Below, piece after piece: positions 16,523-59,456 of a stretch of 64,000 nt of DNA. Under the pieces are notes generated by a model. The model had not been told where the DNA came from and did no database searches. It worked only from the letters and a program-made list of their open reading frames with translations. The DNA is taken from positions 31,744,001-31,808,000 of the forward strand of contig NC_043002.1 in the NCBI RefSeq assembly GCF_006345805.1, given 5' to 3'. Origin of the DNA: Octopus sinensis (Eukaryota). Both the position numbers and the translations under genes were made by a program. Numbering within the stretch: the stretch's first letter is position 1; each line of letters opens with the position of its first letter.

Positions 16523-17050
16523 TAGTGTAAACAGAGTTAGTGGTTATAATAACCGACTAAGGGATAAAATATCCGTATATACCATCGGTATCCATTACCC
16601 GTGTTATCTCCAGGCATTGGTGTGCAGGCCCACTATGCAAGTAGAGTACAGGCAATAACAGGATAAACAAGAGTTTGTCAGGAAACAAAAACAAATAATC
16701 AGAAAATGGAGAAAACCTCAGATTAACAAACACATCGAATGGACCAGATTTATGGCTTATTTCTTAATACAAAGCATGACATAACAAATAGGTGACGTAA
16801 CAAGTCTTACGGCCGTTTCCGATCCGTTGCCAAACGCTGTCTATAAATAAATGCGAGAATAAAGTTCTTCATAGGACATTTGAATTAAGGCAAGAGCATA
16901 CAATATAAACAAGGGGAAGAAGGAAATGGAAAGAAAGCATAGCCTAGAAAAAAGCCTTAGAAGCCCAATATGTTGAAGGCATATAATCTACCATCTTGGA
17001 GCTAAAAGGTCCGTAGGTAAAAGAGTGGGTTAGTAATGGCCTGGGAAATA
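16523..17050 (-). mobile_element. PLE pseudo-LTR with degenerate long-stem-II hammerhead
   Basis: Minus strand gtcct-ATGAAGA...GAAAC-GGCC-GTA-agac (16803-16878); terminus abuts (TA)n. Confidence 0.55.
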
Positions 17051-17084
17051 CTGCAATTTATTAACATGTAGTTGCAATTTTAGT

Positions 17085-17237
17085 GGGTGCAGGCTTCATC
17101 CCCCTTCCTAGATTCACAAACTTATTGGAGCAGTACTTCTGTTTTTCTAATCCCTGTAAAAGAACTCGGAAGGTTGGGCCTCTAACCAAACCTTTCGTGA
17201 TACATTTAAAGGCACGAATTTTCAGCTCTCCCTGGTT
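17085..17237 (-). mobile_element. Mariner 3' fragment
   Basis: Minus strand ggattagaaaaacagaagtactgctccaataagtttgtgaatctagg is homologous to 37070-37115. Confidence 0.5.
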
Positions 17238-19184
17238 CAAGACGTTCCAGCTGTGACCCCTACTCTGGTATAATTCACAGGAACTATGATAGTGAAAGTG
17301 AAAGATGTAGTAGTAGTAGTAGTAGTAGTAGTAGTAGTAGTAGTAGTAGCAGCAGCAGCAGCAGTAGTAGTAGTAGTAGTAGTAGGAGGAGGAGGAGGAG
17401 GAGGGGGATTTGGAGGTGGGGGAAGAGGAGTAGTCTGTTGTTTTTGATGTTGTACTTGTTGATGGTGGTTATTACTGAAAACGATATTTATTGATCTTAT
17501 TACTTTTCTCAGTGTCAGGCCAATCACATTCTATCCAGAGAATGCTTTATCGTTTCAAACGATGTACACATATGCACACCAATATATGTATTTATATGTG
17601 TGTATATATGTATATCTATCGATATATATACACATGGATATTTATGTGTTTCTACATATGTGTATGCGTATGTATGTGCATAAACATATTTACAAATAGA
17701 CACAGCATAGTACATACATACACGGACATACAATAAAGAAAGAAACGGAAAAGATGGCTTACCGAATTATCTAATGTGTTTATTGACGTTAATTTTATGA
17801 CATACTGTATGATACGTGGTGAATGTCAAAAAATAAATGTATAAATAAGGTTATAAGGAATTCAATAGTACGAACCACAATGATAAAATATAAAACATTT
17901 ATATAACAGAAATTACAGAGACACCAAGATATATGTATATGTATATGTGTAAGTATGTGTGTGTCTGTGGTTGTGTGTAATTTGTGTATGAGTGCCGGAT
18001 GCATTGCTTTTGTGTTTATGTGGGTGATAATGTGTTCGCCTGTGTGCTTTTGTATTTTAGGGTGTGTGTAAGTGCTTATATAGAGAGAAAACTGTCACAG
18101 AAAAATCTGTATTTATTTAGGATCAGACAGACACAAATACAAACGACTCAGACACACCCTTTCTATCTCTCTCTTTGTATCTCTTTCTCTCACATATGCA
18201 CGCACATGCATGCACATACCAATATATAAATATGTCTCTGTTTGTGAGGGTAAGTGTATGTATGTGAGTTTGTGTGCTCAACAATTATTGGTGGAAGAAA
18301 TGGAAAATAAAAGAAAAAAAACACATCTTATTCAACACGATGAAGCGTTCAATGTGGAACTCTCGTTTGTTGTGAGTCATAGAATTTCGATGAACCATGA
18401 GGATATATAATCAGTTTGCTATAAATTCAACACTCATATACATGCACACACAGAAACACATACATATAGACACACGATATACAAGGAAATAATATTTTTA
18501 AAAAAGTAGCCAAACATCAAATAAATAAAGAAAAATGATTAGAACGTAAAATAAAAAGAGAAAAAAGGAAGCAAGGGAGATAATTCCCAATTGAAGTGTC
18601 AAGTTGTAATTTGGCCGTCAGTTGTGAGTAATTATTGGTTTACTTTCCGTCAAGTTATTGTTCAGACGTTACGGTCACAAAGGTTTGATTTGAGCTGACA
18701 ACTTGCCGCATTGTTCTGTTGGCGTCCTTCTCTCTATGCCACACGCCATCATACGATACCCCATTACCTCTTCGACGTTACCCCTCCTCTCTCATATCAC
18801 TATCATTTCATCAACGCTTCCGCCTGTTCAACTGCACAACCGCTGCCACAGCTATGATGCTACATTACATCCAACACTCCCACGTCTTTGCTAAACATTG
18901 CTCACACAATTATCGTATCTAATGCTTTATTTCGGCATTGGCTACGTTTCAAAGGACTCTCCACAAGCAGAAATTTCCGCCATATTTATACTACTACTGT
19001 CTAAATCCTAATTAACGGTCCATATTTCTATAACTGTGGCCATTTCACCACCATTTTAGCCATTTCCACACATCATGAAGACCATCATTTCACCCTTCAG
19101 GTCGACATCAAATGTTGTTATATTATTCTAAAATACCCTAAGGTATACATGGATGTATGTGAATATATGTATATATATATATAA

Positions 19185-19740
19185 TTTTAGAAAACAGATT
19201 CCAAATCAATCAGGTGCAACCCTTCAGTGTTATATGCATCTACATATCGTACTTTGAGGTCTTATGTATCGTATATTTATACACTTATCTATAAATATAC
19301 AAAGTATCTGATAAAAGTCAATATTCAATTTTTGGGGATTAATCGATATGTGTGTATTCTATTTCAGATAATACAAAAGTAACCTAATGAGTAAATCTAA
19401 CAGTGAAGTCATGCTATCACTTTGCACATCACGAAATAATACTTAAAGGATATAACAAAAATTACCAACCGGATATATAATATATATAAACAACCACACT
19501 AATGGGTCGAGGTTCACTACAGTTGTTTCGGATGTTATTTTAATTTATGGTCAAAAGTATTACATCATACAAAAAACCGTCTAATTCAGGTGAATAAAGA
19601 GGAAATTTAACGCTTAGAATTTCTCAAAGAATAGAGCGTAATGAAATGTGATCCTACTGACCAGGTTAAGGCTGGGAGAGAATACGTCTGAAACAGCTGT
19701 AGCGAACCTGTTTTTGTTTCTTCTTCACCTACCTCGGAAC
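19185..19740 (-). mobile_element. PLE pseudo-LTR with degenerate hammerhead and inverted partial copy
   Basis: Minus strand ttcac-CTGAATTA...catcc-GAAAC-AACT-GTA-gtgaa (stem I ttcac/gtgaa); plus-strand GAAAC-AGCT-GTA-gcgaacc at ~19690-19708. Confidence 0.55.
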
Positions 19741-19914
19741 CTTCCAACGTTTGAATCTGCAACCTATACTCGACTCTAGAATACATGCAAAGAATGCATC
19801 CCTGTGTGTCTTTTAAGATATGTTGTGTATTCTGTCAGTAGTTTTTGTATGTGTGCATAACTGGAAGATTATGATAGATTAATAGATATGTGTGAGGTAG
19901 TGACTGAATTGGTT

Positions 19915-57668: not shown

Positions 57669-57918
57669 ACAATTGCAGCGTGGAAGCTGTTTGTAAGCCA
57701 TTTAAGAAACACATGCAGCACGGATTTTTGTCAGTGAACAGGTCACGGATTTTAGAGACGAAAATATTTTGACAAATTAAACTTATATGTTGAAGTAAAT
57801 CGAACGGCTTTTGTGTGTTTCTTAAATGGCTTACAAACACCTTCCATGCTGCAATTGTTTTCGTTCCAGCACACGATCTCAGATCAAATCACTTGCTATG
57901 CGAGTACATCTCCGTAAT
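57669..57918. mobile_element. Fold-back element in (TA)n
   Basis: Inverted arms ~57669-57713 and ~57814-57857, one-sided tail to 57918. Confidence 0.7.
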
Positions 57919-58669
57919 ATATATATATATATATATATATAGTTAATCCAAACGTGTATATAATATATACTCGTGTGTGTGCGTGTATATATCATGTATG
58001 TATGCATACAGTCCAATGATGATTCAGCCGGCCAAAATGTCGAAGTCACTGACAATAAGAAAAATATGTATTTGCTCTACAATGGTATAAATTAATCCTA
58101 CAGTTCAATGTAAAGTTATTTTTACTTTAACTGAACATAAATTCGCACGTTAATAGATGAGTGTGTGTGTATGTGTGTGTTCGTGTGTGTGTGCGCGTGT
58201 CTGTATGCGTGTGTGTGTGTGTGTGTGTGTGTGTGCAGGCACGTGGGAGAGAGGGGGAACAGTTGTATGTGTGTGATTGTATGTCGTACGTTAATCTCTT
58301 CTGGTGTAGTGCACGGACACCACCTGCCCTTACTCCGTCAATCTAATACTCACATTCACTTTTCCCCTTATTCATCCTCGCTCTTCTTTGCACCTGTTTC
58401 AATGAGTCACGCACACGGCAGGCCCAGATTATGTTGCTTACCTTGAGTAAGACTTCATTGCCTTAAATGTCTCCGCATATATGTGTTTTGCGTGCGTGTG
58501 TGCCTGTATGCATATATATATGTAGATGTATATATATATATATATAGATATATATATATATATATATATATATATATATATATATATATATATATATATA
58601 TATATATATATATATATATATATATATATATATATATATATATATATATTATATATATATATAATATAT

Positions 58670-58980
58670 ATTTCGACCGAGCTCCGTTCCGACGGACAGG
58701 TCGTAAGTCTAAATTGTCGTATGTCTGATTTATATTTCTCAAGAGTATTTTTATTCAAATGCAACTGATGCTCGAAAGCGCCTGAGTGAGAGACAGTGGC
58801 ACAGTGGGTGCCTGGGTCTGAGGGAGGCCTGCGTTGCCAGATGCTGCCATAGTTATCGTACGGTAGGCTGCCCAGCGACCATAAATCGATTTTTCAATTT
58901 ATTCTTTTATTTATCCATTTCTTGTAGTCGTAAGTGCGGATGGTCATAAGTAGCTTAGTCGTAAGTCAAGGAAAAGGTTC
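58670..58980. mobile_element. Tigger/pogo-like MITE remnant
   Basis: Repeated gtcgtaagt subterminal motifs; end gtcgtaagtcaagga. Confidence 0.5.
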
Positions 58981-59086
58981 ATATATATGCATATATATAT
59001 ATATATATATATATATATATATATATATATATATATATATGTGTGTGTTGTGTGTGTGTGTGTGTGTGTGTGTGTGTGTATGTATG

Positions 59087-59456
59087 TATGTATAGGGATG
59101 AAATGGAACGCACGAGTTGATATATATGGACAAAAAAGTCAAGAAGAAAATGATAAAATAATTTTTAAAAAAAACATTTCAGTAAGGACTTCGAACCCAC
59201 AAGAGTAAACAAGGGAGACAGACACAAGCAGAAAGAAGGAAAATACCACTTGTATTTGAACAGTATACAAATATTCTTTTAAAAAAACATTTCTTTTAAT
59301 TTTTCTAAATTTAATTATTTATTTGTTACAGTTGAAAAAGTCTCAATGACTGAAACCGGTACTGAAATGTTTTTCATGAAATTACTTTAGCATTTTCTAT
59401 CTTGACTTTTTTGTCCATATATATCAACTCGTGCGTTCCTTTTCATCCTTATACAT
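59087..59456. mobile_element. Fold-back PLE terminus with degenerate minimal hammerhead
   Basis: Arms ~59087-59152 and ~59391-59456; cag-TTGAAAA-agtc(tcaat)gact-GAAA-C-CG-GTA-ctg at ~59329-59364. Confidence 0.7.

Follow-up and report, generated by a model that had tools for sequence, protein, structure and literature searches.

The window analysed here is a 64,000-nt stretch of the Octopus sinensis genome (NC_043002.1, positions 31,744,001 to 31,808,000), and its subject is a series of hammerhead ribozyme motifs that belong to Penelope-like elements (PLEs) and related repeats. All numbering refers to the whole window; the genome is 2.72 Gb long and rich in microsatellites. A preliminary description had pointed to self-complementary strings of seven kinds after the GAA of such motifs, and all seven were found in the places given or at most 1 nt off (ACGGCCGT, for example, occupies 16809-16816). 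Genome matching, family by family, identified all eight listed sites as copies of dispersed repeat families, which are named here by window position, and in family alignments the commonest sequence at every site has the type I hammerhead layout. These family-commonest sequences have the core CUGANGA...GAAA...UH, which in three families takes the variant forms U3-A8, U4C and A6U. Core damage affects four of the eight window copies (point changes at 37260 and 44197, a deletion at 16808 and a truncation at 19693). An Rfam search of the window returned no hammerhead family among the matches listed (150 of 291), all of which were microsatellite look-alikes; the motifs were therefore parsed by descriptor and by family, as follows.

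33229..33958, insertion of the 594-bp tandem family: a head-to-head pair of 5'-truncated copies in (TA)n, with 95.7% identity between the arms over 621 nt
33679..33778 (+), intact type I motif of the 33764 family: stem I 6 bp, core CUGAAGA at 33685-33691, 69-nt stem II region, GAA, palindrome ACGUACGU at 33764-33771, C17 at 33772
33521..33620 (-), second intact 33764-family motif, in the inverted arm: palindrome at 33535-33528; not in the preliminary description
37254..37340 (-), hammerhead motif in the pseudo-long terminal repeat (pLTR) of a Hydra-like PLE: core CUGAUGA, 58-nt stem II region, ACAUAUGU at 37267-37260
37611..38164 (-), decayed C-terminal endonuclease part of a Hydra-like PLE open reading frame (ORF), upstream of the 37260 motif: tblastn with the 778-aa L383 ORF, E 9e-32
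44528..44603 (-), decayed 44533 motif: core CUGAAGA at 44599-44593, ACGAUCGU at 44540-44533
16802..16890 (-), dead 16808 copy: ACGGCCGU at 16816-16809 and the stem II 3' strand retained
19680..19706 (+), 3' half of a 19693 motif only: ACAGCUGU at 19693-19700, 5'-truncated at an inversion junction
19513..19594 (-), decayed whole 19693-family copy in the inverted arm: core CUGAAUU, stem III ACAACUGU, motif span 19589-19518
59327..59366 (+), short motif of the 59355 family: U3-A8 core UUGAAAA (family-wide), 13-nt stem II region, ACCGGU at 59355-59360, A17
44193..44227 (-), minimal motif of the 44197 family: core CCGACGA (U4C), extra A, 4-bp stem II, ACGU at 44201-44198, U17
59606..59641 (+), minimal motif of the 59633 family: core CUGUGGA (A6U, family-wide), extra A, 4-bp stem II, ACGU at 59633-59636, U17
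23376..27380 (+), 5'-truncated Neptune-type PLE in (TA)n: ORF with GIY-YIG end to 24305, then a CA-rich 3' region of about 3 kb
27256-27290 (+), minimal motif ending the Neptune-type PLE: ACGU, C17
6081..6183 (+), further decayed long-stem-II motif: ACACGUGU at 6170-6177; not in the preliminary description

The insertion at 33229..33958 stops at the two alternative end points of the 33764 family, about 100 nt apart. The GCAA core reported at 37260 is present in the window copy, but this A13C change is private to it and the family reads GAAA; G12C is likewise private to the 44197 window copy. The stem II region of the 44533 copy is 49 nt long versus about 61 nt in its family, whose stem I reads GGCC/GGCC. 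These stem I strands are themselves palindromic (L061-L090) and may therefore pair in additional registers. The 16808 family has a CUGAUGA core, a stem II region of about 87 nt and a stem I of only 2 bp, and its window copy has lost CTGATGA and the stem II 5' strand by deletion. An inverted, truncated copy of the 59355 family adjoins the listed one at 59096-59184 (-). The motifs at 44197, 59633 and 27260 are minimal hammerheads, with no loop III, an extra base after A9 and G10.1-C11.1.

Stem III palindromes and long stem II regions

In the family counts, which cover 30 loci per family including the window copy and some overlapping loci, perfect stem III palindromes were present in 21/30 (37260), 14/30 (44533), 17/30 (16808), 24/30 (59355), 27/30 (44197) and 25/30 (59633). 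The 33764 family has 983 genome matches, and a hand count of the first 100 in the list gave 81 copies with ACGTACGT, 19 with ACGTGCGT and none with any other string; the 19693 family reads ACAGCTGT by eye in a partial alignment. The outer A-U and C-G pairs belong to the hammerhead core, and therefore only the central 2-4 bases are informative. Self-complementarity had been said to persist while the sequence changes. This holds with one correction: the 'AACGTT' given for 44197 and 59633 was mis-parsed, being A14 + ACGT + U17 of a minimal core without loop III, and hence carries no covariation. The 27260 relative reads ACGT-C, versus ACGT + U17 at those two sites.

Because palindromes had been picked in the preliminary description, the palindrome term was left out of the descriptor used for a census of 100 x 10 kb (1 Mb) of the genome at round coordinates, with 10 shuffles. 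The census gave 30 matches per 1 Mb versus 2.9 per shuffle, tandem and inverted twins counted, and 18 of the 30 were perfect palindromes versus 0.0 in the 10 shuffles. Among stems of at least 6 nt, 11/23 were perfect palindromes and 13/23 self-complementary allowing G·U, and most other matches were one change short of a palindrome or had a single unpaired centre. These counts support an excess of palindromes over chance. Palindromes of 11-12 nt, some with an unpaired centre, occur in further families with 470-500-bp tandems (L270, L305, L313, L330, L321, L306 and L248).

The five unusually long stem II regions reported earlier are borne out by the families: 69 nt (33764), 58 (37260), about 61 (44533), about 87 (16808) and 56 (19693). 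The genome was searched, as had been proposed, with a descriptor admitting such lengths (CTGANGA + spacer + GAAAC NNNN GTH), its reverse serving as control; the figures are pattern matches that may overlap and do not imply folds. Spacers of 45-75 nt gave 39,110 matches versus 1,436 in the control, spacers of 76-105 nt 10,462 versus 1,300, and spacers of 8-30 nt 17,771 versus 1,185. Among motifs with an 8-nt stem III, those with long spacers (45-105 nt; 49,572, control about 2,700) thus outnumber those with short ones (17,771). By hand count of the first 100 of the 39,110 matches, 91 of them readable, 65 had perfect palindromes of 7 kinds, 13 had G·U pairs and 13 had neither, and the chance palindrome rate for this sample is about 1 in 16. 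The published descriptors stop near 24 nt (Cervera) or at a 7-17-nt spacer (Craig) and miss this class, as the preliminary description had expected. Ribozyme counts made with such short descriptors therefore fall far short of the true number in genomes of this kind.

Covariation extends into the stems. For 22 relatives of the 37260 family that were chosen by hand, 87.9% of 635 cells are paired, with double changes at 7/12 stem II pairs and 2/5 stem I pairs, as judged with shuffles that ignore relatedness; stem III pairing of 100% in this set is by construction, the rows having been chosen by loop type. In a second lineage, whose tree was poorly resolved, RNAalifold found stem I and an inner hairpin, and the stem II register slid. 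The stem II region of the 33764 family lengthens in its apical loop by 7-nt TTTAATA steps (69, 76 and longer; L375, L381 and the list of 76-105-nt matches), and its lengths are mixed inside one array of this young family. An intron reading of the 33764 stem II was set aside by eye, since the donor-like GGTAAG is not common to the other long-arm families.

Wobble versus mismatch variants

A palindrome that decays randomly as DNA should give equal counts of any variant and its reverse-complement mirror. On the sense strand, one member of such a pair forms G·U and the other a mismatch. In genome-wide pattern counts, ACGATTGT occurs 2156 times and its mirror mismatch ACAATCGT 341 times, and ACATGTGT 2813 times versus 420 for its mirror mismatch ACACATGT. 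The G·U-pairing variants thus exceed the mismatch variants 6-7-fold, whereas the background A>G/T>C and C>T/G>A strand ratios are 0.96 and 1.17, i.e., a bias of at most 1.2-fold. These unequal counts oppose a DNA-level origin of the palindromes. The central U·G cannot pair inside a hairpin and hence pairs only between two copies. The listed wobble forms belong to near-identical multi-locus families, and the listed mismatch forms are mostly scattered. In the young 33764 family the sole variant that has spread is the wobble ACGTGCGT (13 loci, uniform in 5/5 multi-copy loci listed). A tree of 21 hand-picked relatives of the 37260 lineage, built with the loop masked, places an ACGT clade (99/95) inside an ATGT ladder among ATAT families; it is midpoint-rooted and gives no direction of change. 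A young short-arm family (L422, L423) segregates ACGATTGT and ACAATTGT in motifs that are otherwise identical.

Judged from the genome counts, the sense-strand preference for wobbles across families is natural-history evidence that two copies pair as RNA. The earlier suggestion of natural covariation fitting dimer pairing is supported.

Elements, predicted folds and alternative explanations

The best-preserved carrier is an intact element of a sister family of 37260 (locus L383), in which a 778-aa ORF for reverse transcriptase (RT) and endonuclease lies between two motifs 2863 nt apart; the element also has a 5'-truncated copy in inverted orientation, and its target is (TA)n. Compared by eye with printed alignments, the ORF has traits of the Hydra clade: a DKT motif, CxxC and CxH near the end of the endonuclease, a lack of CCHH, an element length below 3 kb and (TA)n; RWK reads RWL. 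The CxCX5C linker before the endonuclease was not found in the L383/L384 ORF, and the lineage is therefore filed as Hydra-like only. Hydra-like remnants in L228 and L189 are each followed by a further motif with a mid-length or long arm. The L228 motif (minus, near 250-370) has a 77-nt stem II region that appears branched, with two inner hairpins.

An ORF for RT and a GIY-YIG-type endonuclease lies upstream of the motif in the 37260 lineage and at 27260, and a remnant of one (L238) accompanies the 59633 family. Searches of the flanks with Neptune and Hydra-like proteins tied no ORF to the 33764, 44533, 16808, 19693 and 59355 families. RT frames beside two 59355-family copies were LINE-type by eye and were set aside. 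The Neptune-type element of 27260 has an intact 1008-aa relative (L371:1637-4660). This family is very young, many of its copies being 99-100% identical in protein, and its 3-kb CA-rich 3' region is unusual; a lone CTGACGA without a GAAA partner lies near 26566 in the window element.

The 33764 family consists of a 594-bp tandem unit that is young and non-coding; its motif has 983 genome matches, and its insertions have head-to-head copies and (TA)n ends. Its arrays have one whole type I motif per unit at 593-601-bp spacing, and the longest ATG frame is 36 aa. By sequence, it appears to fit the definition of a non-LTR retrozyme. The distance of about 100 nt between the two fixed end points of its insertions (L001-L030) exceeds the 30-40-bp PLE tail of the literature. 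A second copy in the same locus was present in 6/30, 7/29, 9/30, 10/30, 3/30 and 1/30 loci of six families, mostly head to head. The insertions show the traits of PLEs (5' truncation, tandem or inverted copies, a microsatellite target and a tail), for the 19693 family by inspection.

Two further frames were noted. The window has overlapping open frames at 50840-52011 (+), one with a CCHC zinc knuckle, which are perhaps a remnant of a retroelement ORF1 or gag. At L090:2289-3227 (+), an unbroken 313-aa frame (Pfam Beta-lactamase, E 3e-32) is likely a host beta-lactamase-like gene.

In predicted folds, stem III 6-8-mers are unfavourable as hairpins (+1.3 to +5.3 kcal/mol) and favourable as duplexes (-2.6 to -13.3 kcal/mol). 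A natural 714-nt tandem, folded without constraint, takes the form of a double hammerhead at -189.8 kcal/mol versus -176.8 for two monomers, 13 kcal/mol lower. Most genomic motif copies are single or inverted; the pLTR-ORF-pLTR arrangement of L383 would place a second copy in the same transcript. The predicted folds and the L383 layout thus indicate both a stem III that is self-complementary and unstable alone and a second copy within one transcript.

We therefore favour, with a probability of roughly 0.78, the reading that the motifs are type I hammerheads in the terminal repeats of many PLE families and in non-coding tandem derivatives, and that they likely act as double hammerheads. Two copies in one transcript would pair through the stem III palindrome and exchange stem I strands, and the paired copies are predicted to cut out unit-length RNA. 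During replication through RNA this inter-copy pairing would be under selection, and the palindromes may have drifted between families via intermediates with wobble pairs. The long arm of stem II is presumably a tolerated paired extension. Family specificity could arise from the joint divergence of stems I and III together with tandem proximity, without a selected code.

Several points weigh against this reading. Self-cleavage 3' of H17 is predicted from genomic sequence and folds; no listed record that contains the 594-bp unit is registered as RNA, the contigs taken for RNA are guesses, and those that cover the unit are uninformative on its ends or level. Of four further tandems folded, three pair the palindromes across copies with parts misfolded, and one old pair does not. 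Monomer folding is conceivable for the 12-nt palindromes, the 16808 family has just 2 bp in stem I, and the 59633 family has the A6U core. Copy counts are non-independent: the wobble excess represents a handful of expanded families, with separate fixations judged by eye, and clustering also affects a few mismatch copies. Two of the four transitions keep pairing, so that the lone variant of the young family is weak by itself. The activity reported for PLE hammerheads is low (Cervera & de la Pena 2014, PMC4209133); a lizard PLE hammerhead depends on protein for cleavage, and cleavage is dispensable for insertion in vitro; and 8/9 frog retrozyme dimers did not cleave.

The lizard element and the U4C or A6U cores of some families also suit an alternative in which the copies pair as RNA, though not for the sake of self-cleavage: the pairing would be a signal, structural or bound by protein, that serves template jumping or reverse transcription. 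We consider this improbable, since most families retain the full core, the U3-A8 change is covariant, and the stems covary around core columns that vary little or not at all (in rows picked by core pattern).

The suggestion that the palindrome is a family-specific pairing code was not supported. Such a code would bar mixed ribozymes among co-expressed families or let a non-coding family choose its autonomous partner, and the palindromes are indeed many and 4-12 nt long. As stem I is also swapped in a double hammerhead, any choice of partner would depend on both stems I and III. In a set of 28 self-complementary clusters (many of them single matches), stem III matches in 17/378 cluster pairs, stem I in 9/378 and both in 5/378, so that 373/378 pairs fail in one stem or the other. 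However, identical 8-mers recur in 11 cluster pairs versus 6.6 expected at random (P(>=)=0.067), i.e., at least as often as by chance. Two young tandem families have ACGTACGT/ACGUACGU in common with a different stem I, and all minimal families have ACGT. Moreover, wobble and perfect variants segregate within families and cross-pair, and copies of one insertion share their state, so pairing in cis works without a code. The reuse of palindromes by families leaves a selected code unsupported, and we rate it as quite unlikely. By sequence, mixed dimers would be mostly excluded in effect, with no indication of selection for this, and the 5/378 doubly compatible pairs can be attained by drift alone. 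Least likely of all is that the palindromes are by-products of a DNA site, or of A-to-I editing of element RNA giving G·U: several wobble states are reachable via sense-strand A>G or CpG decay, but a DNA palindrome predicts equal mirror counts, and duplex-local editing would itself need the duplex.

A wider proposal is tentative, and in our estimate doubtful. It holds that long-arm (45-105 nt) hammerheads, about 47,000 matches above control, are obligate dimers that ride in Hydra-like PLEs and their parasites, and that the G·U preference may be a fossil record of pairing required for spread in vivo. The arm may dock an element protein, and stems I and III may set the partners of non-coding families. 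The role of hammerheads in endonuclease-bearing PLEs has been described as unclear, and the intact autonomous L383 element and the young 594-bp tandem are natural constructs at hand.

Relation to known hammerheads

Dimer cleavage of minimal PLE hammerheads, which the preliminary description mentioned, is indeed in print: Cervera & de la Pena 2014 (PMC4209133) proposed it, together with helix III palindromes that vary between families ('GAAAN Palind NU H'; Aedes CGCG vs GGCC). The octopus motifs resemble those hammerheads in the type I layout, the extra nucleotide after A9, the U3-A8 variant, and single and opposite-strand copies. They differ in stem II, which is short in Fig. S3 of that paper, and the descriptor used there (stem II 3-7 bp, loop 3-10 nt, GAAANNUH only) reaches its limit near 24 nt. 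A wobble-versus-mismatch test was not found in the part of PMC4209133 available. A literature search on extended stem II regions, heterodimers, evidence from wobbles and hammerheads of octopus, which reached mostly open-access texts, found no paper on these points, nor a report of an abundant 45-105-nt stem II class or of the wobble asymmetry.

Craig et al. 2021 (PMC8557442) used a core search with a 7-17-nt spacer. Like their Hydra-clade PLEs, the Hydra-like lineage here is a short element with a C-terminal endonuclease lacking CCHH, with DKT, CxxC, CxH and (TA)n, and with a self-complementary stem III that varies between families (8-11 nt there). Unlike them, the L383 ORF has no CxCX5C, and the Hydra hammerheads listed in that source have a short stem II and a mostly odd-length stem III. 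The same paper lists two plant elements as non-canonical because loop II has inserts of 35-50 nt. Its Naiad 'half core' was considered as the same layout as here and rejected, because it differs in the two 3' ends examined. The Naiad_Ovul 3' end (PMC8557442 supplement) has a hairpin and GAAAC...GT before CTGATGA, and may be a permuted hammerhead instead of a 'half core'.

The 33764 family is like non-LTR retrozymes in that its tandem units are non-coding and each contain one type I hammerhead (PMC7229834; 10.64898/2026.07.22.740005). Retrozymes have been proposed as derivatives of PLE repeats, and the amphibian ones require dimers (same sources); no mollusc is among the genomes sampled by Li et al. 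2026 (10.64898/2026.07.22.740005). Unlike retrozymes, the octopus family, known here from DNA sequence, has a 594-bp unit whose stem II region is 69 nt long, (TA)n targets and a 5' copy in inverted orientation.

Inter-copy stem III pairing was described for the double hammerheads of the newt satellite and of avocado sunblotch viroid (ASBVd) (Forster 1988, via PMC6155905 and PMC6466107), and palindromic stem III-loop III pairing between two copies appears in Perreault 2011 Fig. S8 (PMC3088659). The present motifs differ from the newt satellite and ASBVd double hammerheads in scale and in stem II length. The same inter-copy palindromic pairing of stem III among several ribozymes was reportedly also noted by Lunse et al. 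in 2017, whose work may include cases of covariation or of long stems. Dimer cleavage via a palindromic stem III and palindromes that differ between families are thus already in print, and double-hammerhead working is known for PLEs; what appears to be new here is the long stem II, its abundance, and the natural evidence for RNA pairing.

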